Shown piece after piece: positions 7,617 through 29,890 of a stretch of 52,488 bases of DNA. Positions within the stretch are counted from its first letter, which is position 1, and each line of letters begins with the position of its first letter. Source of the stretch: Candidatus Woesearchaeota archaeon (GTDB lineage Archaea; Nanobdellota; Nanobdellia; Woesearchaeales; WJKL01); contig WJJM01000005.1 in assembly GCA_014729675.1 (NCBI GenBank), forward strand, positions 1 through 52,488, given 5' to 3'. The translations under genes were made by a program, and so were the position numbers. The notes beneath the pieces are model-generated. The model was given only the letters and a program-made list of their open reading frames with translations. It was not told the DNA's origin and searched no databases.

Positions 7617-7750
7617 AGAATCCTATCGTCTTGCTTCTGCGGCAGGATTAGCGAACGAAGTGAGCGTTAGAGATTAGGATTGAAAATCCTGATCGCAAGG
7701 CAGCTCGTTTACATAGGGATAATTATCGCAAGGCAGTTTTCCGTCTTATT
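7617..7750 (+). repeat. Dispersed palindromic intergenic element, copy 1
   Basis: ATTAGGATTGAAAATCCTGAT (7673-7693) is identical to 29781-29801; two ATCGCAAGGCAG units. Confidence 0.8.
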
Positions 7751-7890
7751 GAGCATGGTTAAAAAATGTTATGCAAAAGATTTTCATGACTTAAAAATCA
7801 AGATGAAAAATAATATGTGCTTAATGAACAACTTTTAAACAGATAGATTTAAATAATAACAAGATTCTCATGTTCAACAGGGGAGTCTAG

Positions 7891-10095
7891 ATGCACAACA
7901 AAGAGCCTTCATTGATACTTACTATGGGCACTTACCCTCCGAGGGAGTGCGGCATAGCTACTTTTACAAAAGACCTTGCTGATTCTATAAACAGAAAGCT
8001 AAATTCTCGCCTTAAAAACAAGATAATAGCAATGAACAGGAACGGCGTTAATATCTACAACTATCCAAAAGAGGTTCTTTTTCAGATCAACGATGTAGAT
8101 ATAAAAGATTATAAAAAAAAGGCAGAGATGATAAACCAGATGCCGAATGTCAAGATAATCCATATCCAGCATGAGTTTGGCATCTTTGGAGGAGAATACG
8201 GAAGATACCTCTTGCATTTTCTGAACAAGATAAAAAAGCCGGTAATAATGACCTTCCATTCTGTCCTTCCCGATCCGGATGAAAAAAGAAAAAAGATAGT
8301 GAAAAAACTTGCAGAAAAGGTAAGCTGCATAATAGTGATGACTGAAAAGGCTGTTGAGATATTGAGAAAAGAATACCAGCTGAAGACAGACATACAGATT
8401 ATCCCTCATGGTATCCCACATACTCTTTTCCAGAAAAATAAAAAAGAGAAGGAGAAGATAGGGTATAAGGATAAGATTGTGCTTTCATCATTCGGACTTC
8501 TGAGCAGGGGAAAAGGATATGAATATGTGATAGAAGCTCTTCCCAGGGTGGTAAAGAGATTCAAGAATCTAAGATACCTCATAGTGGGCCAGACTCATCC
8601 TGTTGTAAGGAATGAAGAAGGGGAAAGATATAGGCATATGCTTGAGAAAAAAGTAAAGGAGCTTAAGCTTGAGGCCCATGTAAAGTTCTACAACAAATAC
8701 ATGACATTGAAAGAGATAATCCAGTATCTTAAGGCTTCAGACATCTATATCTCTGCTTCTCTTGATCCAGACCAGATAACTTCAGGAACTTTGGTCTATG
8801 CGATGGGTGTCGGCCGCGCAGTCGTCTCAACCCCATTCCTTCATGCAAAAGATATTGTAGATGCAGAAAGAGGATGCCTCACAAGATTCAGGGATCCAGA
8901 TTCTTTTGCAGAATCTATAATAAGCATATTAGATGACCCTGAAAAAAAGAGCATGATGGAGAGAAACGCATACAACTATACAAGATCTATGATCTGGCCT
9001 AATGTCGCTATAGCTTATCTAAAGGTGTTCAACAGATATGAAAGGATAAAAGATGCATATGAGAAGCAGTTCCCAGAGATACGGCTGGACCATCTTGAAC
9101 GTTTAACAGATGATTTTGGAGTTATCCAGTTTGCTGACAGGACAATGCCAGACCCAAAGTCAGGATACATGTTGGATGACAATTCAAGGGCATTGGTCGT
9201 AGCCTGTATGGATTACAGCATCTTTGGAGACCCGTACAGCCTTGCCCTTGTAAGAAAATATCTTAATTTCATATCCCATACTCAAACAAAAGATGGAAAG
9301 CTCTACAATTTTGTCAGACAGAACAGGGAGATAGATTTTAAGGACTGCAGCGAGGACGCATACGGCCGTACTTTGTGGGCATTAGGCTACCTTATGTCCT
9401 TGGATGAGATTCCTCTTGCTTTGAAGGAAAAGGCAGACACAATATTCAAGAGCTCCCAGAAACATATAAAAAACATACACTCTGCAAGAGGCAAGGCATT
9501 TTCGATAATAGGCCTTCATCATTATATCCAGACAAAATCCTCAAAAAGAGCAGCAAGACAGTTAAATACGCTTGCAGAATCCTTGGCAGCAATGTACAAC
9601 CAAAACTCTACAAACAAGTGGAAGTGGTTTGAAAGACATATGACATATTCCAATGCAAGAATCCCAGAATCTATGTTTTTTGCATACCTTTCCACAAAAA
9701 AGAAGAGATACCTTGATATAGCAGAATCATCCATGGATTTCTTGAGAAAAAAGACCATAGAAAAAAACTCCTTCTTCCCCATAGGACAGAACGGCTGGTA
9801 TTTTGACAGTAAAGAGCGTGCTTATTATGATCAGCAGCCTGTAGAAGCAGCTTCCATGACCCAGGCTTTGATAGCAGCATATACTGCAACAAAGAAAGCA
9901 AAATACAAGAAAGATGCATTAACAACATTCAGATGGTTTCTTGGAAAGAACTCTTTGAACCAGATGGTCTATGACGAATACACCGGAGGCTGCCAGGACG
10001 GACTTGGAGAATCTTCCCTAAACTTCAACCAGGGAGCAGAGTCAACTATTTCTTATCTGCTGGCAAGATTGAATCTTACTGATTTTGAAGACTAA
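7891..10095 (+). CDS. GT4 glycosyltransferase fused to a six-hairpin glycosidase-like domain
   Basis: GTYPPRECGIATFT, QHEFGIFGG, QITSGTL, VVSTPF in the N-terminal half; DDNSRAL, SEDAYGR, DQQPVEA, NQGAEST in the C-terminal half. Confidence 0.88.
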   Translation: MHNKEPSLILTMGTYPPRECGIATFTKDLADSINRKLNSRLKNKIIAMNRNGVNIYNYPKEVLFQINDVDIKDYKKKAEMINQMPNVKIIHIQHEFGIFGGEYGRYLLHFLNKIKKPVIMTFHSVLPDPDEKRKKIVKKLAEKVSCIIVMTEKAVEILRKEYQLKTDIQIIPHGIPHTLFQKNKKEKEKIGYKDKIVLSSFGLLSRGKGYEYVIEALPRVVKRFKNLRYLIVGQTHPVVRNEEGERYRHMLEKKVKELKLEAHVKFYNKYMTLKEIIQYLKASDIYISASLDPDQITSGTLVYAMGVGRAVVSTPFLHAKDIVDAERGCLTRFRDPDSFAESIISILDDPEKKSMMERNAYNYTRSMIWPNVAIAYLKVFNRYERIKDAYEKQFPEIRLDHLERLTDDFGVIQFADRTMPDPKSGYMLDDNSRALVVACMDYSIFGDPYSLALVRKYLNFISHTQTKDGKLYNFVRQNREIDFKDCSEDAYGRTLWALGYLMSLDEIPLALKEKADTIFKSSQKHIKNIHSARGKAFSIIGLHHYIQTKSSKRAARQLNTLAESLAAMYNQNSTNKWKWFERHMTYSNARIPESMFFAYLSTKKKRYLDIAESSMDFLRKKTIEKNSFFPIGQNGWYFDSKERAYYDQQPVEAASMTQALIAAYTATKKAKYKKDALTTFRWFLGKNSLNQMVYDEYTGGCQDGLGESSLNFNQGAESTISYLLARLNLTDFED

Positions 10096-10140
10096 AGATT
10101 TATAAACACATTCGCCTATAATAATCTAAAAAAGAGAAAA

Positions 10141-11232
10141 ATGATACACAAATGCTATGAAAAGTCTAAGGAAGTCATAAGGATATGTTCTACTAAACAC
10201 GGACTTTTCGCTTCTGGAGGGAAAGAAGGCTATGATGCAGTCTGGGCCAGAGACAGCGTAATAAGCATGCTTGGAGCTTCCCTGGAAAAAGAGTTCAAAC
10301 AGGTTTTCAAAGCTTCATTAGATACAGTAGCAAAACATCAATCTAGTTCAGGCCAGATCCCAAATGCAGTAGATAAGTTCTCAAAAAGAAAACCCCATGT
10401 CGATTATGCTTCTATAGATTCAACATTATTATACATAATTGGAATACATTTATACTCAAAAAGATACAAAGACAAAAAATTATTGAAAAAACATAAAAAA
10501 AACATACAGCTTGCACTTCAATGGCTAAGGTGCCAGGACTTTGGAGAGAAAGGATTATTGGTTCAGCAGCCAACATCAGACTGGCAGGACGCTTTCCCTC
10601 ATAAATACGGCTACACAATCAACACTCAGGCATTATACTACAAGGTTTTAAACTTAACAAACAACAAGAAAGATGCAAAAAATCTGAAAAATACAACCTA
10701 TTGCTCAAAAGACGACTGCCTTTGGAACAAAGATTTCTATTTGCCATTCAGATGGAAAAACCATGGAAAATACAAAGAACAGGGAGATTGGTTTGACACA
10801 TTAGGAAATCTTTTCGCAATAATCTTCGATTTGGCAGAAAAAAAGCAGGCAAAAAAGATCTTAAGCTATATAGAAAAGAACAACATTCACAAGCCTTATC
10901 CTATAAAAGCTATCTATCCTCCGATAAAAAAAGACTCAAAACACTGGCAGGATTACTATAATGACTGTGATGCAAAAAATCCATACCATTATCTCAATGC
11001 AGGCATCTGGCCGTTTATAGGAGGCTTCTATATCTTAGCTTTGATAAAACAAAAACAGTTCAGGAAAGCGCACCAGCAGCTTGAAAGGCTTGCAGAATCC
11101 AACCTGAAGAACAACTTCCCGGAATGGATCAATCCCCTGACAAGAGAAGCCTTTGGAAAACTCCAGGCATGGGATGCAGGAGTATACATGCTTGCATACA
11201 GGTCATTAAAGAAGAAAAAAGTTTTGTTATAA
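10141..11232 (+). CDS. Glycoside hydrolase, alkaline invertase (GH100)/amylo-alpha-1,6-glucosidase-like
   Basis: YDAVWARDS, GQIP, IDSTL, DWQD, YLNAGIWPF, FPEW, QAWDA. Confidence 0.8.
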   Translation: MIHKCYEKSKEVIRICSTKHGLFASGGKEGYDAVWARDSVISMLGASLEKEFKQVFKASLDTVAKHQSSSGQIPNAVDKFSKRKPHVDYASIDSTLLYIIGIHLYSKRYKDKKLLKKHKKNIQLALQWLRCQDFGEKGLLVQQPTSDWQDAFPHKYGYTINTQALYYKVLNLTNNKKDAKNLKNTTYCSKDDCLWNKDFYLPFRWKNHGKYKEQGDWFDTLGNLFAIIFDLAEKKQAKKILSYIEKNNIHKPYPIKAIYPPIKKDSKHWQDYYNDCDAKNPYHYLNAGIWPFIGGFYILALIKQKQFRKAHQQLERLAESNLKNNFPEWINPLTREAFGKLQAWDAGVYMLAYRSLKKKKVLL

Positions 11233-11958
11233 CTCAGAAGCAGCCCCCTTATCAACAATCCAAACACAATTCTTATGCTTCCTCAACACACTTGCAGGAA
11301 TCTCTTCAGAAATATCAGAATAGACTATCTTCTTCAATATCTCAGCCTTTCTCTTGCCAGAAACAATAAACACTATCTTCCTGCTTTTCATCCCTGTTGA
11401 AATCCCTGTTGTAACAGCATATTCAGGAACATCCATCCCAGTTAATTTCTTATTCACTCTAAGAGTATCTTCATCCATCTTTACTTTCCTTGTAACAGAA
11501 TCAAAACTACTTCCAGGAAAATTAAATCCAAATATATGCCCATCCTCTCCGCAGGCAACCAGACAAATATCTATCCCTCCTTTTTCAGCAATAAGCCTAT
11601 CATAGGCCCCTTCCTCAGAGATATTCTTCTCAGATGGAAAATAGCTTTCAAGACAGTCTATATTATCAAAAATATGTTTCTTCATATAATACTTGTAGCT
11701 TCTGGGATCGTCCTCTGGCAGAAGCCCGCCCTCTGTGCAGTATTCATCAAAATTAAAGAACCTGACATTTTCAAACACATCTTTTCCACTAAGTATTTTA
11801 TATATCCCTTTTGGTGTCGTTCCAGTAGGAACAAGAAGGTTGGTCTCTTTAGAACCTTCAATACTTTTCAATATTATCTCAGAAGCTATCCTGCACATCT
11901 CAGGATAATCATCAGCAACAGTAATTTCAATATCATTAAAGAACTTTTTCTCTGCCAT
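11227..11958 (-). CDS. nagB: Glucosamine-6-phosphate deaminase/isomerase family
   Basis: PTGTTP, FNFDEY, GEDGHI..NFPGS, T.GI..M, GKRKA, PASVL. Confidence 0.85.
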   Translation of the reverse strand: MAEKKFFNDIEITVADDYPEMCRIASEIILKSIEGSKETNLLVPTGTTPKGIYKILSGKDVFENVRFFNFDEYCTEGGLLPEDDPRSYKYYMKKHIFDNIDCLESYFPSEKNISEEGAYDRLIAEKGGIDICLVACGEDGHIFGFNFPGSSFDSVTRKVKMDEDTLRVNKKLTGMDVPEYAVTTGISTGMKSRKIVFIVSGKRKAEILKKIVYSDISEEIPASVLRKHKNCVWIVDKGAASEL

Positions 11959-13098
11959 TTAATCAAGCTTAAGCCTTTGTTTGGTTATATCCCTTATCTT
12001 CCTTCCTATATGCCTATAGTCAAGATTATCAACAGAATGTTTTCTTCCAGCCTGACCCATCCTTTCCCTAAGCTCTTTATCCTGCATCAGCTTCAATGCA
12101 TATTCTTTAAGCTCGTCGACATCAGCCCTATATGCAAATGTTTTTGGGGAATCAAACTTAACAACCTTTTTTTCGTCAAAGCCCATATGTGGATATACCC
12201 ATTCAGATTCAAGTTTAACTTCCCTTGCTACTTTTGCAAGGAATCCTGTCTTGTTATGAATGATAGTCTCACCAGGCCCCATCTTGTTGATAGAGATAAC
12301 AGGCTTTCCGCAGGCCATCGCCTCAACCTGTATCATACCATACCCTTCAAGCCTCGAAGGAGCAGCATATATATCACAGGCATTCACTAAGTCAGCCATA
12401 AACTCCTGGCTGAACTCGTCATCCATAAAAACAACCTTGTCCCTTATCCCAAGATCTTCAGCAAGTTTCTCCTCTTTCTCCCTCCATTCTGAAGCGCAGT
12501 CGCTTGGCCAGGACTTGCATACATATTTCCAGTTCTTGAATTCCTTGTTCGCTAAAGCCAAGGCCCTCATCATCTCCTGAGCACCTTTTGAGGTAACATC
12601 TCCCCCTACTGTCAGTATCATCTGCTCATCATCATTTACATTACACATTTTTCTTATTGCAGAATTGGCATTTGTATTGTTAGTGGGCATGAAAAGGTCA
12701 GTATCTATTCCAATATGCATCGGGACGATCTTGTTGACATTTACACCGTCTCTCTTGTAGGTTTGCTTTACCCATTCGCTTGTCGTGAACATCAGCTCAA
12801 GCTTGTCAAACTCTTCCTGATAATTGGCAACCCATCCGTCTGCATTGAACCACGGCACAGCAGGAACACCATACTTCTGCGGATGCCTTACGACCTCCTC
12901 GACATTTCCCCAGAATCCTACTCCAAAACTCACATCAATATTCATGTGCCTAAGATAGAATTTCTTCTGTATGCTTTCCCTATAATGACAGGGAAATGCT
13001 TTTTCTCCTGCCAGTTTAAGTCCTTTGAAAAGATGATCTCCCTGCAGGCTTGTCCCGTCCGGTTCTGTCGGATATGCATAAAAAACAGCGCATCTCAT
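11959..13098 (-). CDS. GT4 glycosyltransferase
   Basis: GIDT, KG, PSRLEGYGMIQVEAMACGKPVI. Confidence 0.9.
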   Translation of the reverse strand: MRCAVFYAYPTEPDGTSLQGDHLFKGLKLAGEKAFPCHYRESIQKKFYLRHMNIDVSFGVGFWGNVEEVVRHPQKYGVPAVPWFNADGWVANYQEEFDKLELMFTTSEWVKQTYKRDGVNVNKIVPMHIGIDTDLFMPTNNTNANSAIRKMCNVNDDEQMILTVGGDVTSKGAQEMMRALALANKEFKNWKYVCKSWPSDCASEWREKEEKLAEDLGIRDKVVFMDDEFSQEFMADLVNACDIYAAPSRLEGYGMIQVEAMACGKPVISINKMGPGETIIHNKTGFLAKVAREVKLESEWVYPHMGFDEKKVVKFDSPKTFAYRADVDELKEYALKLMQDKELRERMGQAGRKHSVDNLDYRHIGRKIRDITKQRLKLD

Positions 13099-13107
13099 AT
13101 TATCACA

Positions 13108-13665
13108 TTATAACTTAAAAGACTCGACAGCTCTGCAACAGATACTCTCAAAACTTTTTTTGTCAAATCCATAAACTCCCTCTATCAGTTTTTTCTTTTT
13201 ATCAAGAACATTACCGTCTAACTTTATAAATCTATCTGAATTCCTGCTGGGATAGCAATACTTTCCGTTTTTCACATAGGAAAAAAATATTAGCTTGCTG
13301 CAGTTTAACTCATCATGTTCAACCATCTCAACAACAGCATCATGGACATCAACATGCCTTTTATGGCCGTACTCTCCGTTCTTCCCATGCGTAAAAACAC
13401 AATCATAACTGCCGGCAAACTTTCTCAGTCTTTTTTTTATCTCATCAGAAGGAATATCCATCATCTTTTCGTCGTCAAGATCAGATATAAAAGACTTAGC
13501 TCCCAAAATCCTGCACACTTTCTTAAACTTAGGAGCCCTGTCCAGATCACCCTTCCTGCAAAGGCTGACTATTGTCCAGTCCCATCTCTTGTTCTTCAAT
13601 ATTGTACCCCCCATCCATATCGTCTCGTCATCAGGATGCGCAACCACTGCCAAAGCTTTCTTCAT
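13108..13665 (-). CDS. PIG-L/LmbE family deacetylase
   Basis: AHPDDE, THG..GEYGH..H. Confidence 0.9.
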   Translation of the reverse strand: MKKALAVVAHPDDETIWMGGTILKNKRWDWTIVSLCRKGDLDRAPKFKKVCRILGAKSFISDLDDEKMMDIPSDEIKKRLRKFAGSYDCVFTHGKNGEYGHKRHVDVHDAVVEMVEHDELNCSKLIFFSYVKNGKYCYPSRNSDRFIKLDGNVLDKKKKLIEGVYGFDKKSFESICCRAVESFKL

Positions 13666-13710
13666 GACCTCATAGAAAAGTTTTTAACTAATAAATCTTT
13701 CCATAATAAG

Positions 13711-14493
13711 ATGATATTAGGCATAGACATAGGCGGAACAACACTCAAGGCAGGTCTTGTAAAAGACAAGAGAATAATCAGGAAAAAAACAATAAAGACA
13801 GGCAGTACAAAAAAAGATATTATAGACAACCTTCTAGACCTTACAGATTCCCTGTTCGAAAAAAATATATCTCATATAGGCATAGGCTGCCCAGGTCCTG
13901 CAGATTATAAGAAAGGCATAATAGGAGACACTCCTAATCTTCCGTTAAAAGGCACTAATCTGAAAAAACTGATAAGACAAAGATTCAGAAAGAAAGTTCT
14001 CATCTCAAATGACGCAGCTTGCTTTGCTTTAGGAGAATCCATAAGACTGAAAAAATCAAACCTGGTTGCCCTAACATTGGGAACAGGGATAGGAGGAGGC
14101 ATAATAATAGACAAGAAGATATATTCAGGAAAAGGGAATGCAGGAGAAATGGGCCATACAACAATAAACTTCAAGGGCCCAAATAGCATCAACCATGGAG
14201 ACCTTGAGTCTTATATCTCAGCAAAAGCCATTGAAAGAGATTACAACCTGCCCCCTGAGAAACTCAAGTCAAAAAAAGCCTGGAACGAGATAGGAGAAAA
14301 GCTTGGCATAGGCATAGCTAATATAATAAACTCTCTTGATCCGGAAATCATAGTTCTTGGAGGAGGCATCTCAAATTCCTTCAGCTTGTTCAGGAAAGGC
14401 ATGCAAAAACAGATAACAGAAAGAGCGATAAGCAAAACAAGGACAATCAAAGGAAAACAGGAAAGCGGAATCCTTGGAGCAGCACTGCAATAG
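13711..14493 (+). CDS. ROK family sugar kinase
   Basis: GIDIGGT, NDA, LTLGTGIGGG, AGEMGH, LGGGI; true start MILGID at 13711. Confidence 0.92.
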   Translation: MILGIDIGGTTLKAGLVKDKRIIRKKTIKTGSTKKDIIDNLLDLTDSLFEKNISHIGIGCPGPADYKKGIIGDTPNLPLKGTNLKKLIRQRFRKKVLISNDAACFALGESIRLKKSNLVALTLGTGIGGGIIIDKKIYSGKGNAGEMGHTTINFKGPNSINHGDLESYISAKAIERDYNLPPEKLKSKKAWNEIGEKLGIGIANIINSLDPEIIVLGGGISNSFSLFRKGMQKQITERAISKTRTIKGKQESGILGAALQ

Positions 14494-15468
14494 TCATATC
14501 CTTATCTTTTCTATCTTTGCATCATCCATATTCTTTACTATAATGTCCTTATCAAAAGCTTTCTTTCCATAGATTATCTTAACCTTCCTCTGATCAGCAT
14601 CACAATATCTTGCAGTAAGAGAAGCAGCTATCTCTATAATCTTGTCATCAACTCTGCCTTTAACTATAGTTACAGGCCCTACAAAATCCTTAGCTTCCAG
14701 GATAAGATCATGTTTGGTCCTTTCCAGTTTCTCGTTGTCTTTCTCATCCTTTCCCACTATTATCTTTGTATCTCCGACCCTAAAATGCCTCCCGGTCTTC
14801 AGAAGAACGACATCTTCTTTTTTAATATCTTTATTATTCCTGAAAAGGTCCTTCAGCTTTTCTGAATATTCTTTGTTTGTAAGTATACATCCTCCTGCAG
14901 GAGTCTCATAATCTTTGACTCCTAATTTTCTGGCCAGTTCAATCTGCCTTTTCCTTCCTCTGCCTTTTATATCAAGAAGCTTCTCCCTGTCAACAAGGCC
15001 TTTTTTCTCAGCTTCTGTTTCCTCCAGCAGTTTTGCGCTTAATGGCCTTAACAGCTTTCCTTTCAGGCCAGCCTCTTCTTCTACAACACCTAATGCCTTC
15101 TTCCTCTGGCTCATAGGCCTCTCATCAAGAACTTCTCCTGTAAATATAAAACCTGCTCCTTCTGAATCCATCAGTTCTTTTGCTTTCCTAAGCATGAACG
15201 CATGACAGTCTATACATGGATTCATGTTCTTTCCATGCCCGTGCTTTGGCTTCTTTACCATATCAAAATAATCGTCCCTAAGCTCCATAAACCTAAGTTC
15301 AAACCCTTCTTTTTCAGCAACATCTCTAAGCCACCCTTTCTTCTCCTCGCTGTTCACAAAAAAAGGGCTTGTAAAAGCTACTCCGATAACTTCAATACCC
15401 TGCTCCTGCATAAGCTTCACAGCAAGTATCGAGTCCAACCCTCCTGAAAAAAGTCCTACTGCCCTCAT
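14494..15468 (-). CDS. PP-loop tRNA thiouridylase-like protein (ThiI/MnmA-related, DUF814 C-terminus)
   Basis: SGGLDS, NPCIDC, TGEV..RPMSQ, PAGGC.LT, GRHFR. Confidence 0.85.
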   Translation of the reverse strand: MRAVGLFSGGLDSILAVKLMQEQGIEVIGVAFTSPFFVNSEEKKGWLRDVAEKEGFELRFMELRDDYFDMVKKPKHGHGKNMNPCIDCHAFMLRKAKELMDSEGAGFIFTGEVLDERPMSQRKKALGVVEEEAGLKGKLLRPLSAKLLEETEAEKKGLVDREKLLDIKGRGRKRQIELARKLGVKDYETPAGGCILTNKEYSEKLKDLFRNNKDIKKEDVVLLKTGRHFRVGDTKIIVGKDEKDNEKLERTKHDLILEAKDFVGPVTIVKGRVDDKIIEIAASLTARYCDADQRKVKIIYGKKAFDKDIIVKNMDDAKIEKIRI

Positions 15469-15674
15469 AATCTGATCAAATAAACATTGCTTTTTAAAGA
15501 TTTGCCATTAAAATAAGCTTCAACACCCTTTGGCAATAACCCTTAATATCTATAAAAAGCATAATCAAAAATTTCAATCATATCCCTAAATCAGGCTTTA
15601 ATCCATACTATTGAAAGTTTCAGATTATATTCAATTTTGATAAAAAGTAAGATTAAACTTTTCAATCATATTGA

Positions 15675-16040
15675 TGGCACTCACAGCTTCGCTGTTCGTG
15701 CACAGCCCCTCTCCGCAGCTAAGTTGAGTTCTAACTTAGACTCTAATCTACCACTCTCTCAGTTAAGCTAACTTAGTTCTCAGCTTAAATCCAATCTTAG
15801 TGAAGCACAGAGCACTAAAACCTGGGTGGGAAAAAGAAAGATAGTTCTGCACCAAAAGGGGAGGAGCTAACTGCCGATAGGCAGTCTTCTTTGGCTATAG
15901 TGGCGAGCAAAGCGAGCGTTATAAATGATTATTGTTAAATTATTATTTTTGAATAATAATTGCAAGGCAGGTTTTCCTGACTTAGAAATTATTATTAAAT
16001 AATTATCGCAGGAAAATTTGTTAACATAGAAATAATTATG
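15675..16040 (+). repeat. Dispersed palindromic intergenic element, copy 2 (longest)
   Basis: GCGAGCAAAGCGAGCGTTATAAAT (15903-15926) is identical to 29759-29782; 5' part ACTCACAGCTTC shared with 29629; several hairpins. Confidence 0.8.
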
Positions 16041-16209
16041 GAATCTTATCTTTTAGGCAATTTAACTTACAGGCAAGATCTCTTGATCTATGAATCAATA
16101 TTGAACTATCTTATAAAAATAATTTTTCAAAATGATGCAAATCCAACATTAAAATAAAAAGATATAAAAACTAAAATCATTTTACACTTAAAAAAAAGGA
16201 GGATTAAAT

Positions 16210-16494
16210 ATGTTATCAAAAATACCTATAAACTTAGAAAAAGTAGAAAAGAAGAATATAGACACAGAGATATTAAGAGCGGCTATTATTGCAGAACTGG
16301 ATGCAGTTAATCTTTATGAGCAGATGGCTTCATTGACAGAAGACAAAAACCTTAAAGCCATCCTTATGGACGTAGCTAAAGAAGAAAAGACTCACGTAGG
16401 AGAGTTCCAGACCCTTCTCTTAAACAGGGACAAGCAGCAGACAGAAGAATTAAAGGCAGGCAAAGAAGAAATTAAGGAAGAGGTAGGTGAATAA
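16210..16494 (+). CDS. Short ferritin-like protein (encapsulated-ferritin/rubrerythrin half-domain type)
   Basis: AELDAVNLYEQ, EEKTHVGEF; GGAGG RBS. Confidence 0.85.
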   Translation: MLSKIPINLEKVEKKNIDTEILRAAIIAELDAVNLYEQMASLTEDKNLKAILMDVAKEEKTHVGEFQTLLLNRDKQQTEELKAGKEEIKEEVGE

Positions 16495-16684
16495 TATGGA
16501 AAAGAACATCGGAAAGACAGACAAGATAATAAGAGCCATAGCAGCGATAATATTCATAGTTCTTGGTCATATCTACACTCCCTGGTTTTATATAATCCCA
16601 GCACTGCTCCTGTTCACAATTCTGACAGGTTCATGCCTGCCTTACAAGATTTTGGGAATCAACACAGCCAAAAAAGAGAAATAA
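16487..16684 (+). CDS. DUF2892 (YgaP-like) membrane protein
   Basis: NIGKTDKIIR, two TM helices, G.CLPYKILGINT; start may be 16496. Confidence 0.85.
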   Translation: MNNMEKNIGKTDKIIRAIAAIIFIVLGHIYTPWFYIIPALLLFTILTGSCLPYKILGINTAKKEK

Positions 16685-16687
16685 TCT

Positions 16688-20496: not shown

Positions 20497-20497
20497 T

Positions 20498-22286: not shown

Positions 22287-23190
22287 CTTTTGCCTTCAGC
22301 CCGCTGTATTTATTCTCAGCCAGCTTCTCAAACTTTTCCTTTACAAATCCTTCAGGACTCTTAAGGTATTTTACATTAGGTTTCAGCCTTATCCTATGAG
22401 CCAGAACAGAGACAACAGAATTCTTAATATCAGAAAAATCTACAGAACTTCTCCCGTTTACAAGAGCATTGCTTTGACTTCTTTCATAAAGCCCTATTGA
22501 AGCTCGGACAGATGGCTTTTTTTCAACATCATCGTCATCCCTTATCTCTCTTACAAGATCGATCATCAGATCCAGAAATTCTTCCTCTACCTTGGCCAAG
22601 CCTTTGTCCTTAATTGTTACGATATCTTTTTCTGATTCAGATGTTCCAGGATAGCCCATATACACTACATCAAACCTGTCTAGAAGAACATCACTAAGTT
22701 TCTCGGTAGAACTATCCTCTGGATTCATTGTCCCTATGAATATGAAATCAACATCAAAGTCAACATCATACCCCCCTATCGTAGCTTTTTTCTCTTCAAG
22801 TACCTGCAATAGGGCATTCTGCAGCTTTTCAGGACATCTGTTTAGCTCATCAAAGAACAGCACTCCTTTGTCAGCCTTGAATATTTTTCCTTTTGTGAAT
22901 GCTTCAATACTTGAAGCCCCGTATTTCATAGCTTTTATGGGGTCAATATCTCCAAGAAGGTCTTCTACCGTAAGATCAGGGCTTCCCTGTATCCTTACAA
23001 ACTTCCCCTCAGTCAACACATTTGCTATATTTCTTGCAAGCGTTGTTTTTCCTATTCCGGGAGCTCCAACTATAAGCAGGTTTCTTCCAGATATAAGCCC
23101 GCTTTTTATATTTTTCTTGACCTCTTCTTGTCCTATAATGTCTGTAAAAATATCTTTTCTGTCCAGCAGCCTTTTTTTGATGTTTTTCAT
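22273..23190 (-). CDS. MoxR/ChlI-type AAA+ ATPase
   Basis: GAPGIGKT, FFDELNR, QNALLQVLEE, TMNP, LLDRF. Confidence 0.9.
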   Translation of the reverse strand: MKNIKKRLLDRKDIFTDIIGQEEVKKNIKSGLISGRNLLIVGAPGIGKTTLARNIANVLTEGKFVRIQGSPDLTVEDLLGDIDPIKAMKYGASSIEAFTKGKIFKADKGVLFFDELNRCPEKLQNALLQVLEEKKATIGGYDVDFDVDFIFIGTMNPEDSSTEKLSDVLLDRFDVVYMGYPGTSESEKDIVTIKDKGLAKVEEEFLDLMIDLVREIRDDDDVEKKPSVRASIGLYERSQSNALVNGRSSVDFSDIKNSVVSVLAHRIRLKPNVKYLKSPEGFVKEKFEKLAENKYSGLKAKGGGP

Positions 23191-23245
23191 CTTGCAGAAT
23201 TTGAATATAGATAGATTTATATAACTTTTTATTTATAACAAAGAT

Positions 23246-24487
23246 ATGCAAAAATTTGACATAGCTATAGCAGGAGCAGGACCTGCAGGCTTATCTGCAG
23301 CTTCAAAACTAAGCAAACATTTTGATGTTCTTGTTTTTGACAATGCCCGGATCCCACATACAACCCATTCATGGTACAGCTATAAGGATCGCATTAAAAA
23401 ACACAATTTGGAAGATTCAGTCCTAAACAGCTGCAGTTCCCTGGTCTTTAAGGCTGTAACAAAAAGACACGTTATGAAAGACAATTGTGTGGTGCTTGAT
23501 GGAGATAAGATCCTGAAAAGATGGCATGACATTGCTCTTTCAAACAAGGCAGCTATAGGAAAAAAGAAGCTTAAATCCTACAGGAAAAATGAACAAGGCA
23601 TAAGCATCAAGACAGACAAGGGAAAAGTTGATGCAAAACTTTTGATCGACTGCACTGGCTGCAATTCTCCGATTCTTAAGAAGAATAGACTTATAAACCA
23701 CACCAATACATGGCTTTGTTATGGTTCAAGGATAAACAACATATCTGTAAAAGACAATGAACAGATAAAATTTCTTCCTCTCATGGACAAGCACAACACA
23801 TATACTACATTCTATCCCATAAGCAATAACAAGGCAGATTTTTATATATTCAGGAATCTAGAGAACAAGATCCCCGATCCAGAATCGCTTAAACCAATGT
23901 TCTCTCGTTCACTGAAAAAGATATTTCCAAAAGCAAAAAAATTGTCTGAGATTAAGGGAAACATAGTTTCAGGAGAGCTAAAAAGTTATGCATTGGATAA
24001 TGTTGCCTTTTTCGGAGAATCAGGCATGCTCACACCTCCTGCCTGCGGAATGGGATTCAATGAGATACTTATGAAACATTCAAATTTTTCAAAGGGCATA
24101 AAGAAATGTATGGACAACAACAATCTTGATAAGAAAAGCCTTAGCAATATATCTTTGAGCCTCAGGGACAGCAATATAGTGAACTTCCAGAGGATAATAG
24201 GCAAGTTCAGCTATTACTTCATAAACTCTCCCGACAAGTGGGATGGGGGAGTAGAATGGCTGAATTCCCTTGGAAACATGAGCAGATATTGGATGAGAAA
24301 TCAAGTAAGCCTGGAATGGATAACAAAAGCATCTTATAAGCTCTACAAGACAATCCCTTTTTCTGAAGCTGCAAAATACATGCCAAGAAAAGACCTCATT
24401 TTCATAGCAACTCAGTTTGCAAGGTTCATGAAAGGATCTATAATCCAGGAAGCAGAAGAGATTCTGAAGAATGTAAGATTAAATTGA
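23246..24487 (+). CDS. FAD-dependent oxidoreductase (lycopene cyclase/geranylgeranyl reductase-like)
   Basis: IAGAGPAG Rossmann motif, LIDCTG, GESG...P..G.G. Confidence 0.75.
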   Translation: MQKFDIAIAGAGPAGLSAASKLSKHFDVLVFDNARIPHTTHSWYSYKDRIKKHNLEDSVLNSCSSLVFKAVTKRHVMKDNCVVLDGDKILKRWHDIALSNKAAIGKKKLKSYRKNEQGISIKTDKGKVDAKLLIDCTGCNSPILKKNRLINHTNTWLCYGSRINNISVKDNEQIKFLPLMDKHNTYTTFYPISNNKADFYIFRNLENKIPDPESLKPMFSRSLKKIFPKAKKLSEIKGNIVSGELKSYALDNVAFFGESGMLTPPACGMGFNEILMKHSNFSKGIKKCMDNNNLDKKSLSNISLSLRDSNIVNFQRIIGKFSYYFINSPDKWDGGVEWLNSLGNMSRYWMRNQVSLEWITKASYKLYKTIPFSEAAKYMPRKDLIFIATQFARFMKGSIIQEAEEILKNVRLN

Positions 24488-25066
24488 TGCAAGTACCCTT
24501 ATCGCCCACACAGTGGCTCCTGCAGTGACAGGCATCAGGATATTATCATTTAAAGGATTCTCTTTCATCTTAATCCCGATACTTTCAACAGCCATTGCTA
24601 TTATCGCTGCAGCCAATGCTTCATACCACCCAATAAAAAGCCATGCTCCTAATGCTCCTGCAATAGCTCCGGCAATAATCCCTTCTATCTTTTTTTTCTT
24701 GTTCAGGGGATGTTCTATCTTCCCATATTTTCCGATCATAGGAGCAACAGCATCTCCAAGAGCAAGGATCATTATGGCTGCCATTGCTATATCTTTATCA
24801 AAGAGTACAAGTGAAAGAAATATGCCTGTCCCATAAAATACAGCACCTTTGCCAGGAAAAGATTTTATATCATGTTTCCTGTCCAGATATTTTAAAACAT
24901 TATACAGAACAGGAACCTTTATTTTCATACTCATCAGTGAGATAAGCAACCCCATAACAACTGCAACTGCAAAAAAGAACTTTCCTACAATATCATAATG
25001 TATCAATACCACAAACACTATGCCGCTTAGGATATGAAAGATCCGCCTTGCAGTTTCGTCCATCAT
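24479..25066 (-). CDS. Dolichol/phytol kinase-like membrane protein (CTP_transf_1 family)
   Basis: E..RRIFH, LALGDA.A...G, KK.EG, DNI. Confidence 0.85.
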   Translation of the reverse strand: MMDETARRIFHILSGIVFVVLIHYDIVGKFFFAVAVVMGLLISLMSMKIKVPVLYNVLKYLDRKHDIKSFPGKGAVFYGTGIFLSLVLFDKDIAMAAIMILALGDAVAPMIGKYGKIEHPLNKKKKIEGIIAGAIAGALGAWLFIGWYEALAAAIIAMAVESIGIKMKENPLNDNILMPVTAGATVWAIRVLASI

Positions 25067-25545
25067 ATCACCTTGATAAATAGGTTCCATGCTCCGTTTC
25101 CGGAAACACTTATCAGTGTAACTGCTATCCCTGAGATCAGAACCCCAATAATAGCAGCCCTTACATAATCTTTGAAATCAAATCCCAGAAGATAGGCTCC
25201 CAATCCTCCAGAATAAACTCCAGACCCTGGCAAAGGTATACCTATAAACAATGCAAGCCCTATCTTCCCGTACTTCTCCACATAAGGCTCAACTTTTTTC
25301 TGGTTGCTCTTTATAATCTTATCATAGTTTTTTTTGATAAATTCCACTTTAAGAAAAATATACATCAGTTTGTTAAGGAAGAACCATATGAAGGGAACAA
25401 GCACTATATTGGCCACTATGCATATTAAAAATACAGTCAGAACACTCAGCTCAGTCCTAAAAATCCCGTAAGGTATAGATGCTCTCAACTCAAGAAAAGG
25501 CATAAATGTCAGCAGTATAAGCAGTATTATATCGTTCATATTCAT
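25063..25545 (-). CDS. Small multidrug export-like membrane protein (COG2426)
   Basis: PFLELRASIP, LFIGIPLPGSG. Confidence 0.88.
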   Translation of the reverse strand: MNMNDIILLILLTFMPFLELRASIPYGIFRTELSVLTVFLICIVANIVLVPFIWFFLNKLMYIFLKVEFIKKNYDKIIKSNQKKVEPYVEKYGKIGLALFIGIPLPGSGVYSGGLGAYLLGFDFKDYVRAAIIGVLISGIAVTLISVSGNGAWNLFIKVI

Positions 25546-25581
25546 TTAGAATGTTTATCTATTTATATTCTTTTTGTTTAA

Positions 25582-26370
25582 TCACTTCATCATCTTAAGC
25601 GCATTCTCAACAGAAGAATTCTCAAAAATTATCTTCTTCAATGCAGCAGTAACTTTCATAGGGGTATCATGCTGCCAGACATTCCTTCCTACAGCCAGTC
25701 CGGAAACCCCGGTTCCCATTATATTTTTTACTTTTGTAAAAAAGCTGAGGTCATCTATCTTCTTACCTCCAGCAACCATGACTTTTGTATTGCCTGCACA
25801 TCTTACGATCCACTTAAACTCCTCAGGATTATCATTGTATTTTATCTTGATAAAGTCAGCTCCAAGCTCCAATCCCTGCCTTGCAGCATATGCAAGCATA
25901 GAAGTAGAGGTATCATTTGAAACATACCTCCCTCTTGGATACATCCATGCTATGACTGGCAAACCATAATCATGCGCTTCTTCCTGTACTTCTCCAAATT
26001 CCTTGAAGATATCTGGTTCTAGTGGAGATCCCACATAGACTGTATATCCCACTGCATCTGCTCCAAGATCGACAGCCTTCTTTACAGAGCACATCTGCTT
26101 TGCTATGGGGAATATTCTCGGGATATTACTTTTTCCGTTTAATTTTACTATAAGAGGAATCTTCTTGTGATAATGCTCATGATACTGTTCAGCTATACCT
26201 TTCTGCAATATCAATCCATTATATCTGCCGTGCATAGCTATGTATAATATGTAATTAGGGTCGACATTTCTTGTATTAAAATCAACAGGTCCGTGCTCAA
26301 GCCCCTGGTCATAAGCCAACAGCATGCTCTTGCCGTCTGTAAGAATCTTTTCTATCTTTATCCTTTTCAA
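25582..26370 (-). CDS. Class I fructose-bisphosphate aldolase (DhnA type)
   Basis: AYDQGLEHGP, LGADAVG.T.Y.GS, WMYPRG, ELGADFIK, AGG, GRNVWQ; TTG start with GAGG RBS. Confidence 0.93.
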   Translation of the reverse strand: MKRIKIEKILTDGKSMLLAYDQGLEHGPVDFNTRNVDPNYILYIAMHGRYNGLILQKGIAEQYHEHYHKKIPLIVKLNGKSNIPRIFPIAKQMCSVKKAVDLGADAVGYTVYVGSPLEPDIFKEFGEVQEEAHDYGLPVIAWMYPRGRYVSNDTSTSMLAYAARQGLELGADFIKIKYNDNPEEFKWIVRCAGNTKVMVAGGKKIDDLSFFTKVKNIMGTGVSGLAVGRNVWQHDTPMKVTAALKKIIFENSSVENALKMMK

Positions 26371-26389
26371 TCTATCAACCTCTTTTTAC

Positions 26390-27352
26390 TTATAACTCTT
26401 TTTTTACTATTTTAATCTTTCTCTTTTGAACTTCTTTTTTGGCATCTTTCCATCTAAGCAGATTGTTTTTTGCTCCAAGATGTGTTATTACGCTTTCTGC
26501 ATTAATTATACCCAATCTCAATGCAAACTCAATATCTTTCTTTTTTATCAGAGCAGCAACAAATGATGCAGCAAAAGCATCCCCTGCTCCAGTTGTCTCT
26601 TTTATCCTGACTTTATGTGGATTGGCCATATAAGCATTCTTCCCATCAGAACAGAATACAGATTTTGCTCCGTCAGTAACAGCTACGATTTCAGGTCCCA
26701 TATCCTTTAATCTCTGCAAGACTTCGATGATATTTTCTTTTTTAGACAGCATCTGAGCCTCTTCTTTGTTAAGCACAAGAACATTTGTTTTTGCCAGTAT
26801 TTTTTTTATTTTCCTAACACCCTTCTTTATAAGATAGCTGCTTGGATTATATGCTATATTTATCTCTCTATCTGCAGCAAACTCTGCTATCTTCTTCTGT
26901 GTGTCAAGGCTTTTCTTCATCATAGAGCTGAAATAAAACCATTTAGTCTTAAGTTTGCTCCATTTTACATCATCTTCCCTAAGATCATCGTTGCTTCCTT
27001 TATACACAAGTATGGTCCTGTCTCTTTTTTCAGCATCCAGCACCACAGAGAATCCAGTCCTAGCATCTTTATTTGATACAAGGCTGTCGTCTACCTTCTC
27101 TTTCCTGAGCATATAAGTTATCCTCTCAGAATTAGTTCCCTTTCCCATCTTCCCAAGATAAGCTGTCCTCAATCCCAATCTTGAAAAAGCCACAGCAGTA
27201 TTTGTTCCTCCGCCGCCAGTATCAAAATTAAGGTCTTCTATAAGCAATTTTGCACCTACAGGAAAAGAATAATATTTTCCCTTTACAGAACTCTTATCAG
27301 TATGCGCAAAACAATCTACAGTCGAACTTCCTACAGTTATTATATCATACAT
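26390..27352 (-). CDS. PfkB family carbohydrate kinase
   Basis: GGGGTNTA, NKEEA, TTGAGDAF; true start MYDIITVG at 27352. Confidence 0.92.
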   Translation of the reverse strand: MYDIITVGSSTVDCFAHTDKSSVKGKYYSFPVGAKLLIEDLNFDTGGGGTNTAVAFSRLGLRTAYLGKMGKGTNSERITYMLRKEKVDDSLVSNKDARTGFSVVLDAEKRDRTILVYKGSNDDLREDDVKWSKLKTKWFYFSSMMKKSLDTQKKIAEFAADREINIAYNPSSYLIKKGVRKIKKILAKTNVLVLNKEEAQMLSKKENIIEVLQRLKDMGPEIVAVTDGAKSVFCSDGKNAYMANPHKVRIKETTGAGDAFAASFVAALIKKKDIEFALRLGIINAESVITHLGAKNNLLRWKDAKKEVQKRKIKIVKKEL

Positions 27353-27497
27353 TTTCTTTAGTGGGACTGAGCGAGTGAAACGAGCGAATGTCGCACAACG
27401 GGTACCTATAACCTTTAGGTTCTTGGAAATCAAAGATTTCCAATAGGGTGTTAACCCTTAGCTACAATGCCCTTCCTACAGTTATTATATCACACAT
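27327..27497. mobile_element. 119-bp multi-hairpin insertion between 26-bp direct repeats
   Basis: CTTCCTACAGTTATTATATCA(T/C)ACAT at 27327-27352 and 27472-27497; internal palindromes such as TTGGAAATC-aaa-GATTTCCAA. Confidence 0.65.
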
Positions 27498-27541
27498 AAT
27501 CTTAACTCCATTTTATAATATAAAAAAATAAAAAAAGAATC

Positions 27542-27907
27542 TTAGTCTTTTGCCAGCGAGATTATAGTTTTTATAGCAACTACAATTGCCGCAGGCGAAA
27601 CAAACAAAACGACATTTACAAGCATATCACTCAATCCGCTCCATATAGCTGAGATGCTCACATAGCTCGCTGAACTTGCTATTATCAAAGACAATGCTGC
27701 AACTAAGAATCCTGTTGTCTCTTTTGCAGTAACATTAAGCAATCCTACTATAACTCCCAGAACAACTAAAGTCCATACTGTATATTCTACTCTCAATTGC
27801 GGAAACAATGCTAATGCAACAGCCAGAACTAATCCTGCTATAAACGCATAATGACCTGCTTTCTTAAGGTCTGCAGTCTGTTTTTTCTTTTTTGCCACTA
27901 AAATCAC
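27542..27907 (-). CDS. Small hydrophobic membrane protein, paralog of 28018..28374
   Basis: AFI.G, LG.IVGLLNVT.KE..GFL.A, PAA.VVA. Confidence 0.85.
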   Translation of the reverse strand: MILVAKKKKQTADLKKAGHYAFIAGLVLAVALALFPQLRVEYTVWTLVVLGVIVGLLNVTAKETTGFLVAALSLIIASSASYVSISAIWSGLSDMLVNVVLFVSPAAIVVAIKTIISLAKD

Positions 27908-28017
27908 CTCTTTTGATTATATCTCTGAAATAGGAGAACTAGTATATAAAGATTTCTGCTAAGAAATCTTTCTGCCTGAAAAATATAGAATCTAAAAAAA
28001 TAAAAAAACAAATTTGC

Positions 28018-28374
28018 TTATTCAGCAGCAAATCCATATACGGCTCTTAATGCTACGATCAAAGCTGCAGGCGCTACTAATACAACTGCCTTAGCGATGA
28101 TTCCTGCAAGGATTCCTCCCAGAGGATCAACAAGCGTATCTACGCTTCCAAGGTTAGCTGTATTTGCCATCAGTACTGCAACAGACGCAATTAAAAATCC
28201 CTGTACTTCTTTGGTTGTTATATTCACAAATCCCACAACTAATCCTAATACAACCAACAGCAGGGTTACCCATGCGCTTGTCCCCCATGCTGCATTAAGT
28301 CCAGCTCCAATTCCTGTTACAACTGCTACTATAACTCCGATCAAAAATGCCCATTTTCCTACTTGGTTAGCCAT
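28018..28374 (-). CDS. Small hydrophobic membrane protein, paralog of 27542..27907
   Basis: AFL.G, LG.VVGFVNIT.KE..GFL.A, PAA.IVA; GGAGG RBS. Confidence 0.85.
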   Translation of the reverse strand: MANQVGKWAFLIGVIVAVVTGIGAGLNAAWGTSAWVTLLLVVLGLVVGFVNITTKEVQGFLIASVAVLMANTANLGSVDTLVDPLGGILAGIIAKAVVLVAPAALIVALRAVYGFAAE

Positions 28375-28469
28375 TATTAACTACCTCCTTTTTGTTTAGA
28401 AGGGATAAAAACCCCTTTTACCTTATCTAGAGAATATATTATATAAACCTTAGTTACCATCAACTAGGA

Positions 28470-29483
28470 CTAATTCAAACTGTTCAGAATATCATGGCTA
28501 TTTTTCACATTCAACCTATTTTTTATCTCTTTCCATAATCCTCCTGCTTTTGCCTGAAATTTTGTGATAAAATATTCTTTTTCTTCTTCGCTTATCTTTG
28601 CAAACCTGTCAGCCATCAAAAGCCCGTAGGGATATCCTGGAAACCCCACATCTTTGGAATTATCACCAAGTTCCCCTGCGACAATAGGCACCATATCTTT
28701 CTGAGATTTGAAAACTTCAAGATTAAATAAATATTCGCTTCCACTGTTAAGTTTTACTATGCTTATCTCAGCCCTATAATTTTCGTCATCTATCTCAGCA
28801 ACAGGGTGATACAACCATGCGCCTTCAGGAGAAATAATATTTACAGAATTTAAAAGATCATTTCCTTTGTCAGTATATATACTGCTTGTCTTGTTAAGTG
28901 CAGCGACAACAGTATTCTCATGCATAGCATTTTCATAAAGCTGATCCATAATCTTTTTCTCTCCTTTCACACAGCATCTCAAGCTCCCGTCTAGAACAAC
29001 GATATCTGCATTTCCTGAAATCTCCCCAGCTATTTCAATCTCAGCAAACCTCCTCACGACCCCTCCTATCCTGCTGATATCTGCTTTATTTACTCCGTCT
29101 TTAAGAGTAGGATCGTCAGCATAAAAATCAAACCTCCTGCCCATAATGTCTCCTTTCACAGGAAATATCTCTGTCTTGTATTTCAATTTCCCATCTTCTG
29201 TATCAGAATGCACAAGAACATAGAATTCTTTTTTCTTTTCATCTATTTTTTTATTTTTCTGAAAAATATTTGCATAAATTCTAACCAGAGAAAGAGAAAA
29301 GTTTACAGCCTTCAAAAGTTCTGCATTCCCTCCGTCAACAAATGCAACCTTCTTGCCTTCACTCTCTTTGATTTTCTTGAAATTATCCCTGCTGAGATTT
29401 ACACCTCTTATCCCATGTTCCTCTAATATCGTGGAATCATCCTTTTCCATAAGCCTGCTTATCTTAGAGATTATCTCTTCCAT
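28470..29483 (-). CDS. nurA: NurA-family nuclease
   Basis: AFVDGG, RR.AE, VLDGSL, KTS, GYPYGL..AD..A.I; start MEEII. Confidence 0.8.
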   Translation of the reverse strand: MEEIISKISRLMEKDDSTILEEHGIRGVNLSRDNFKKIKESEGKKVAFVDGGNAELLKAVNFSLSLVRIYANIFQKNKKIDEKKKEFYVLVHSDTEDGKLKYKTEIFPVKGDIMGRRFDFYADDPTLKDGVNKADISRIGGVVRRFAEIEIAGEISGNADIVVLDGSLRCCVKGEKKIMDQLYENAMHENTVVAALNKTSSIYTDKGNDLLNSVNIISPEGAWLYHPVAEIDDENYRAEISIVKLNSGSEYLFNLEVFKSQKDMVPIVAGELGDNSKDVGFPGYPYGLLMADRFAKISEEEKEYFITKFQAKAGGLWKEIKNRLNVKNSHDILNSLN

Positions 29484-29624
29484 AAAAAGGTAATATTTGA
29501 CTATTTTAATAAACATTATGGTTTTTTACAAGACAAGAATTTCAAATAGCATTTTATATTTCTAAAAAGCAGAATAAGATAGCAAATATCCTTTTTTGCT
29601 TGATAAAAATCTCAATCCCATCAA

Positions 29625-29890
29625 TAGTACTCACAGCTTCACTACTCGTGTACAGTCCCACTCTGATCAAAGCCGAGTTCTGGCTTCGGGTTAATCAACT
29701 TAGCAATTCAGTCGCAAATAGAATTAGAATACATCGCCCCTGCTTCAGCGCTATAGTAGCGAGCAAAGCGAGCGTTATAAATTAGGATTGAAAATCCTGA
29801 TTGCAGGGCAACTCTGTTGACCTAGAGATTAAGATTGAATTATCTTAATCGCAAGGCAGATTTACTGACTTAAAGATAAGGATTCAATCT
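29625..29890 (+). repeat. Dispersed palindromic intergenic element, copy 3
   Basis: Shares 24-nt and 21-nt exact matches with copies 2 and 1; contains CCCACTCT and GCAAGGCAG units. Confidence 0.8.

Follow-up and report, generated by a model that had tools for sequence, protein, structure and literature searches.

Pneumococcal BOX elements are composite repeats in which a boxA module, a variable number of boxB units and a boxC module follow one another, and RUP and SPRITE appear as related repeats in PMC3049150. MITEs, or miniature inverted-repeat transposable elements, have been counted across prokaryotes, and that census places one Woesearchaea genome at 105 MITEs per Mb (PMC11602168). Here we describe a family of composite repeats in the genome of Candidatus Woesearchaeota archaeon (assembly GCA_014729675.1), with three copies on contig WJJM01000005.1 (contig C61), positions 1–52,488; this whole stretch of 52,488 nucleotides (nt) is called the window. 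A previous sequence-only reading of the window had located three elements in a common orientation, and that description was correct; all three are on the plus strand. It had also proposed that they form a family resembling MITEs or repetitive extragenic palindromic (REP) sequences. Our analysis bears this out: the family is multi-copy, intergenic, non-coding, rich in hairpins and lineage-restricted, and its presence varies between two sister genomes. We think that it is probably a lineage-specific family of small non-coding composite repeats of the BOX, BIME (bacterial interspersed mosaic element) or MITE kind, selfish in character and homogenised by recombination.

Abundance, distribution and anatomy of the repeat family

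The source genome is assembled to 1.44 Mb in 72 contigs (36% GC, 91.7% complete), with a coding fraction of ~88% according to crude calls of open reading frames (ORFs). Using the second window copy as a DNA query, we obtained 55 matches in this genome and 13 in G001, a genome of the same genus. A core profile built from 12 long copies gave 47 matches with nhmmer, which were merged into 40 loci with elements of ~0.2–0.6 kb. The strict pattern for SL-b, one of the two hairpins of the repeat unit, matched 57 times, and an IUPAC pattern for the unit matched 52 times compared with 0 for the reversed control. A covariance model, R1, which spans the first 99 positions, found 41 matches in the source genome and 22 in G001. 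The abundance of the family is far above chance, and the three window regions together match 12,547 bases (0.87%) of the source genome. Only one of the 40 loci has an ORF of at least 70 amino acids inside it, and no coding potential is conserved. A mismatch-tolerant regular expression for the unit was also tried; its 166 isolated matches were mostly noise, and the strict patterns replaced it.

Among the genomes searched, the family is restricted to one genus. R1 gave no match in nine other genomes (five genera) of the same taxonomic family and, with stricter filters, none in 149 other genomes of the order. The taxonomic-family tallies of the R1 search and of the DNA search with copy 2 include an unpublished genome, G003, which returned one weak 38-nt match in the DNA search and none with the covariance model. 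When the unit pattern was run on 200 other genomes of the order, seven isolated matches were seen in six of them, without neighbouring units or a core. The exact 22-mer of hairpin P1 and a degenerate unit pattern gave no match in metagenome contigs of the Joint Genome Institute (JGI) or in IMG/VR, and among 185,579 species genomes the exact 22-mer occurred in the G001 record only. We found no description of the family in the published literature covered, which did not extend to the supplementary lists of the MITE census (PMC11602168).

In the 5' to 3' direction, a full element consists of a left arm, the hairpin P1, a stretch of variable hairpins spanning ~80 nt, an optional 108-nt segment, a 3' box with its hairpin, and a right arm; the core is ~150–270 nt long. 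The left arm contains one to several inverted, promoter-like A modules, often with an inverted right-arm unit between two of them. The order within an A module is an AAAAAG box, ATTAAAAC and TTTCAATCC, the forward module being AAAAAG-N4-ATTAAAAC. The base of P1 comprises 4 bp (GCAC/GUGC) and its UC-UC internal loop is conserved, with an upper stem that varies; in the 3' box the conserved flanks GCUAUAG and UUAUARAU enclose a short hairpin. The right arm, 3' of the core, carries one to four direct units per locus in the same orientation. In each unit SL-a, a variable hairpin that is AT-rich, precedes SL-b, an imperfect hairpin of ~24 nt with a conserved G-A mismatch. The left arm carries inverted copies of the right-arm unit type, and both arms are arrays of variable length.

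The copies occur in several forms. In the source genome the long form is represented by 15 complete copies and two that are cut by contig ends, the short form having both the 5' part and the 3' box by six copies (window copy 3 among them), and the remaining core copies by the 5' part only. Unit arrays with a 3' box but without P1 are seen in window copy 1, in C5 and at C2:27372, and unit arrays alone in C6, in C18 and at C20:19225; at C25:54168–54286 three tandem units are spaced by 47–48 nt. Many copies are truncated and decayed, including window copies 1 and 3. Mean pairwise identity over the 15 full copies is 93.7% in the 108-nt segment, 93.9% in the 3' box, 73% in P1 and 63.9% in the variable hairpins. 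The parts of the three window copies are as follows, with the basis of the assignment in brackets where one applies.

7636–7835, plus strand: copy 1, 5'-truncated; ~200 nt absent at the orthologous G001 site (pairwise alignment with G001 contig 6)
7649–7672, plus strand: copy 1, 3' box, minor variant GCGAAC..GTGAGCG (direct-repeat families D10 and D14; sequence reading)
7673–7736, plus strand: copy 1, unit array with an AT-rich SL-a, a degenerate SL-b (7695–7717) and a partial second unit (strict regular-expression match; 21-nt block identical to copy 3)
15545–15676, plus strand: copy 2, left arm, two promoter-like A modules (motif starts 15551 and 15639) around one inverted unit (alignment of 13 copies with flanks; genome-wide list of A motifs)
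15677–15701, plus strand: copy 2, hairpin P1, with the 4-bp base GCAC/GUGC, the UC-UC internal loop and a variable upper stem (covariation)
15702–15784, plus strand: copy 2, variable hairpin region, holding CCACTCT at 15751 (63.9% identity, 15 full copies)
15785–15892, plus strand: copy 2, constant 108-nt segment of the long form (93.7% identity)
15893–15926, plus strand: copy 2, 3' box and 3' hairpin, conserved flanks around the stem (93.9% identity)
15927–16060, plus strand: copy 2, right arm, two units (strict SL-b match 15962–15986) and a terminal half-unit
29555–29626, plus strand: copy 3, left arm, two A modules; the G001 site keeps only an A-like module
29627–29749, plus strand: copy 3, short-form core with a decayed P1 (29627–29651), CCACTCT at 29658 within the variable hairpins and no long-form segment
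29750–29784, plus strand: copy 3, 3' box (24-nt block identical to copy 2; family D10)
29781–29905, plus strand: copy 3, right arm, two complete units (SL-b at 29803–29826 and 29851–29874) and a terminal half-unit

The sequence-only reading had given the positions correctly, but its extents were too short for copies 2 and 3, which reach ~15545–16060 and ~29555–29905. Copy 1 is indeed a member of the family, but a 5'-truncated one reduced to the 3' box plus units. All three copies contain the module GCGA..GAGCGTTA with hairpin units after it, as had been reported. The two exact blocks described earlier were also recovered: the 21-nt block is the longest common to copies 1 and 3 (at 7673 and 29781), and the 24-nt block the longest common to copies 2 and 3 (at 15903 and 29759). 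The core of copy 3 matches profile positions 2–124 and 242–270 in nhmmer, and its P1 is without a stable fold.

Hairpin structure and the possibility of an RNA gene family

We examined P1 in an alignment of 33 copies from both genomes. We observed that 91.9% of the cells were paired and that four of the nine pairs had changed on both sides. The covariation score was 0.157 compared with 0.101 in shuffles, and none of 500 shuffles reached 0.157; when the 3' partner was slid by 1–3 columns, only 11–42% of the cells were paired. At least eight different upper stems are found above the invariant P1 base and internal loop. SL-b was also seen in three main forms that differ by paired changes, namely GCAGGGCAA..TTGACCT (30 copies) and GCAAGGCAG..CTGACTT (14 copies) in the source genome and GCAAAGCAG..CTGATTT in four of the eight G001 matches; three of its seven pairs switch between Watson-Crick states, and the G-A mismatch is constant. 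By eye, the stem of the 3' hairpin reads UAGCG/CGUUA in the source genome versus GUGUGC/GCACAC in G001 with the flanks kept, and a third form is present at one orthologous G001 site. These hairpins are maintained by compensatory changes.

In several copies (C64:37384, C11:10432, C25:54503 and copies in G001) the tip of P1 holds a second hairpin of like plan, with a stem, a UC-UC loop and a stem, and a P1-type motif appears to have been inserted into itself. A scan for UC-UC hairpins was uninformative as a detector, as it returned 216 matches versus 121–164 for control motif pairs, and only 17 of them fell in family loci.

The stems also carry some strand information. In 17 distinct SL-a hairpins, G-T and A-C mispairs numbered 6 and 0, respectively (p=0.031), and in SL-b stems 4 and 1; stems that tolerate G-T and not A-C mispairs are mild evidence that the plus strand is the one that folds. 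Folding energy did not differ between the strands, either for copy 2 (z = −2.50 and −2.54) or over 15 cores (Wilcoxon p = 0.15).

A multi-copy family of structured non-coding RNA genes would show many of these properties, and the sequence-only reading had offered such an RNA as an alternative. The A module would then be the promoter, transcription would start near P1, and variable 5' hairpins would precede a constant 3' domain; the RNA would terminate either at the 3' hairpin or within the unit array, and gene conversion would keep the copies alike. Compensatory changes in the hairpins, mispairs that point to plus-strand folding, and 94% identity in the 3' half versus 64% in the 5' hairpins over 15 copies all fit this proposal. 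In its forward direction the A module is similar to tRNA promoters of the source genome, the stretch common to the youngest G001 copies is gene-like in comprising A modules, core and 3' hairpin but no unit array, and nine of 21 sites are common to the sister species. However, the distance from the TATA-like box to P1 is 16 nt compared with 24–25 nt from the box to the tRNA 5' end (by eye), which would place the start site within P1. The two strands do not differ in how well they fold, no oligo-T terminator was seen by eye after the 3' hairpin, many copies are truncated and decayed, and the family was not found outside one genus. The whole window gave no Rfam match at the gathering threshold, and the region of copy 2 (15450–16250) searched at E up to 10 gave only three chance-level matches of the small nucleolar RNA (snoRNA) type, with E of 0.51–8.5. 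An Rfam match, like a match to the end of a known insertion sequence (IS), had been named beforehand as a refuting result; no Rfam family was matched, and the IS ends present in the source genome had no similarity to the repeats (blastn, E up to 1e-4). No analysis that was run favours the RNA gene proposal, and we consider it unlikely.

A bolder form of this proposal, to which we give still less credence, takes the core as a genus-specific structured RNA gene family or as an RNA-templated self-copying element, with an archaeal promoter, the A module, in every copy. If this were true, a protein would recognise the 5' hairpin with its conserved UC-UC loop, the 5' hairpins would be variable and the 3' domain constant, and gene conversion independent of a transposase would keep ~40 copies uniform in a 1.4-Mb genome of the symbiont type. 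The constant 3' segment would have arisen and swept through pre-existing copies in one species only, and the family would represent a new small-RNA system or a homing-type non-coding element in archaea of the DPANN group.

Turnover between sister genomes and the mobilising enzyme

We compared the 40 loci of the source genome with G001, using 1.07 Mb of its sequence (135 contigs, 88% complete) from which 18.5 kb at the ends of the five longest contigs had been left out. All 22 core matches in G001 are of the short form. The loci were distributed as follows.

9 of 40 loci: both flanks on one G001 contig, core at the matching site
12 of 40 loci: flanks together on a single G001 contig, core missing (gap estimate unreliable for one)
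5 of 40 loci: flanks on two G001 contigs
5 of 40 loci: flank not found in G001
9 of 40 loci: at a contig end in the source genome

The sequence-only reading had advised looking for empty orthologous sites in relatives; 12 of the 21 testable sites have no core in G001. Three of the five split loci, window copy 2 among them, have family sequence at a G001 contig end. Window copy 1 is missing from G001, where the intergenic spacer is ~100 nt versus 338 nt here, and at the site of copy 3 only the A-like module is left. At the two cleanest empty sites, the G001 spacers measure 58 and 27 nt versus 795 and 465 nt in the source genome.

In six matching-site pairs, identity over the first 125 nt was 51–75%, whereas each member had paralogs of 73–95% identity within its own genome, and the paralog was the closer sequence in all six cases. 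That copies are closer to their own paralogs than to the copy at the matching site indicates concerted evolution, and it provides indirect evidence that homologous recombination and gene conversion between dispersed sites are active in an uncultured DPANN lineage. At C2:13158 and C55:4915 the long form is present here and the short form at the matching G001 site; P1 tips and 3' hairpins agree with the consensus of the genome that carries them. The 108-nt segment is found in 17 copies here and in none of G001, being absent also at the orthologous G001 loci; the family is being reshaped quickly. Paralogs in G001 reach 94–95% identity. The three youngest G001 copies have the A modules, core and 3' hairpin in common, but not the unit array or outer arms, and their similarity begins at different left-hand points in different pairs, which looks like conversion tracts rather than fixed transposon ends.

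From these data we infer the following course of events. The elements would be selfish or near-neutral DNA that rarely reaches new intergenic sites, and gene conversion between dispersed copies would continually homogenise them. The unit arrays may lengthen and shorten by local duplication. The imperfect hairpins, with their UC-UC loop and G-A mismatch, may serve as recognition features read as single-stranded plus strand, and their conservation makes them concrete candidate protein-binding sites. If neighbouring genes are affected, for instance by the promoter-like A modules or by stable hairpins in co-transcripts, this would be a secondary effect.

If the elements move, one candidate for the enzyme is a Y1 transposase of the HUH class. 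The source genome has four Y1_Tnp (HUH, IS200-like) matches that belong to two IS types, and high-copy IS ends occur at 12 plus six contig ends. A non-autonomous element could be moved in trans by such an enzyme as single-stranded DNA, P1 and the 3' hairpins being its recognised ends, in the manner of REPIN–RAYT systems or of palindromic elements derived from IS200/IS605. Imperfect hairpins lie at both ends of the core, G-T mispairs are strand-specific and no target-site duplication was seen at the two cleanest sites; these three features fit IS200/IS605 transposition. On the other hand, the IS ends have no detectable similarity to the family (blastn, E up to 1e-4), none of the four Y1 genes is flanked by family hairpins, and neither TnpB nor a reverse transcriptase was found in the source genome (91.7% complete). 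Neither the Y1 types (tblastn) nor the two IS ends (blastn) were found in the compared 1.07 Mb of G001, with the caveat that this genome is 88% complete and that such repeats are often unassembled. The HUH transposase that the sequence-only reading had advised looking for is thus present in the source genome, but with ends unrelated to the family and with no counterpart found in G001. We hold transposition by a Y1 enzyme to be improbable. Two other partners were rejected: a DDE transposase, which is a single-copy locus without similarity to the family, and tyrosine recombinases, of which the genome has five, one adjoining the C41 element, with no consistent pattern.

The IS ends themselves break the assembly and are of two types. 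One is a 140-nt AT-rich sequence with a terminal CTGTA..TACAG hairpin and is found at 12 contig ends. The other, at six contig ends, comprises the 3' end of the Y1 gene and a CTGTGGGC..GCCCACAG hairpin, and a diverged, interrupted copy of it lies inside C71. Example sites of IS ends are C71:1–140, the starts of C27, C47, C42, C31 and C20, and the end of C11.

Several observations weigh against selfish, recombination-homogenised repeats. At the two cleanest pairs of occupied and empty sites (C7:24401 and C25:19640 versus G001), neither a target-site duplication nor sharply defined termini in common were found, the base-level junction check having covered two of the 12 sites occupied only in the source genome. 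Those 12 sites could be deletions in G001, and movement was not observed directly. No transposase with matching ends was found in the source genome, and G001, where Y1 genes were not detected, still has 22 elements with paralogs 94–95% identical. Retention at nine of the 21 testable sites in G001, plus the three split loci, would be expected of an RNA gene family too, as would the covariation, the 94%-conserved 3' half and the promoter-like module at a fixed distance. Finally, the left neighbour is oriented away from the element in 22 of the 31 loci that could be evaluated (p=0.029), which hints at selection or a targeting preference.

Neighbouring genes, boundary elements and known systems

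For the genomic context, ORFs of at least 70 amino acids were called crudely and all loci were normalised to the strand of the element. The strands of the neighbouring genes were as follows.

14 loci: left minus, right minus
8 loci: left minus, right plus (head-to-head)
7 loci: left plus, right plus, one of them overlapping a 91-amino-acid ORF inside the element
2 loci: left plus, right minus
9 loci: element at a contig end

The element lies between ORFs in 30 of the 31 evaluable loci, and in the remaining one it overlaps only the 91-amino-acid ORF within it. A position at a contig end, as in nine loci, is typical because such repeats break assemblies. The head-to-head setting emphasised in the sequence-only reading holds for all three window loci, where the left-hand gene is on the minus strand and the right-hand gene on the plus strand, but for only eight of the 31 loci genome-wide by these crude calls. 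The neighbours are a PP-loop ATPase gene and a GT1 glycosyltransferase gene at locus 1, a ThiI/NFACT-R gene and an EncFtn-like gene at locus 2, and the NurA gene and a topoisomerase gene at locus 3; these flanking genes are of archaeal type, in keeping with a Woesearchaeota host.

It was also considered that the elements might be domesticated cis-regulatory cassettes acting as portable promoters, insulators or terminators. In 446 upstream regions of the source genome, GAAAG peaks at −40 to −31 and TATA-like hexamers at −30 to −21, and the reverse complement of the A module, with GAAAG directly followed by TTTTAATT, fits this layout. Transcription of the left neighbour away from the element is in line with such a role, and stable hairpin arrays could stop read-through. 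However, the A modules lie 45–245 nt from the neighbouring start codons, which is not the usual promoter distance, and at window loci 2 and 3 the neighbouring genes have conserved AT-rich promoter boxes of their own outside the element, common to G001 (by eye). Right-hand neighbours are oriented without bias (15 versus 16), and in the sister species half of the sites are empty although the genes there are the same. A regulatory role as the reason for the family seems improbable to us.

The window also contains three GC-richer, non-coding boundary elements at ~180–290, 750–830 and 1460–1560, and in each of them a long imperfect palindrome begins with CCACTCT. Between them lie two small minus-strand ORFs, 307–726 and 890–1357, both without a Pfam match. 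Each boundary element is unique in the genome by BLAST. The boundary elements look like structure-conserved, sequence-variable boundary sites that are unrelated to the repeat family.

The sequence-only reading had linked the repeats to these elements, as relatives of the cassette sites and possibly as empty sites, a link that was weighed here with integron attC-like sites in mind. CCACTCT is indeed present at 15751 in copy 2 and at 29658 in copy 3, and the three boundary elements have it at 206, 764 and 1490; by eye, one boundary element (~228–247) also has a hairpin with a P1-like UC-UC internal loop. The motif nevertheless occurs at chance frequency, with seven occurrences in the window versus 5.18 ± 2.33 expected and 26 of 100 shuffles reaching seven. 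It is found in two of 43 aligned family copies, at non-homologous positions in different alignment columns (78 versus 176). The boundary regions (150–300, 730–890 and 1400–1600) gave no match to the 5' profile of the family at E up to 100 and no BLAST similarity, and the UC-UC hairpin scan was non-specific. The repeat units are tight local hairpins in direct arrays with no genes between them in the window copies. With the motif at chance level in non-homologous columns and no profile or BLAST similarity, we rejected kinship with the cassette sites, which we regard as extremely improbable.

Other features of the window and genome were recorded. Two small direct-repeat families, D12 and D13, lie at 48353–48945 and 50655–52100, in a 0.9-kb gap upstream of genes for winged-helix, HNH/zinc-ribbon and XerA-like tyrosine recombinase (51252–52100) proteins; an integrated element or a site of recombination may be present here. 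At 37700–41000, genes on both strands carry long coding repeats of low complexity, rich in lysine and glutamate (repeat families D1–D5 and D8; inverted pairs I1–I3). ARAGORN found only 10 tRNA genes in the 1.44 Mb, and a tRNA-like gene with a long insertion is present at the start of C31, which suggests many intron-containing or split tRNA genes in the source genome.

The family shows that a small, tightly packed DPANN genome tolerates a hairpin-rich repeat filling ~0.9% of it and breaking the assembly at no fewer than nine contig ends. Recognising it guards annotation against calling promoters, new RNA genes or cassette sites.

Among the known systems, MITEs in the census are small, AT-rich, non-coding, intergenic, multi-copy and taxon-specific with mutually inverted flanks (PMC11602168), and the present family shares these traits. 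Unlike MITEs, it has unit arrays rather than one defined inverted repeat at its termini; no target-site duplication was seen at the two cleanest sites, and no parent IS with matching inverted repeats was found. REP/BIME and REPIN–RAYT systems (REP doublets and their REP-associated tyrosine transposases) resemble it in having short imperfect palindromes in intergenic arrays with conserved stem imperfections, according to PMC2817692, PMC3116915 and PMC3733652. They differ in that our units are in direct, not alternating, orientation on each side of the core, and no GTAG or CGTC tag is conserved in both species. A cognate Y1 gene as in REPIN–RAYT, single-copy and flanked by the repeats, is lacking, the Y1 genes here being IS200-like with unrelated ends.

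The likeness to BOX is functional only, and we claim no relationship in sequence. The variable tandem units of our family are terminal, lying 3' of the core and not between two end modules. The core is larger (~150–270 nt), its hairpin is supported by covariation, the host is a DPANN archaeon, and copies at matching sites are homogenised within each genome. In the other respects covered by the BOX account (PMC3049150), the two families run in parallel: both are modular non-coding composites with a variable number of tandem sub-units and extensive predicted secondary structure, and both are confined to one species and its closest relative, with many shared insertions that imply slow turnover. 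BOX is likewise without a convincing transposase partner in that account, and is read there as a parasitic element with side effects on neighbouring genes.

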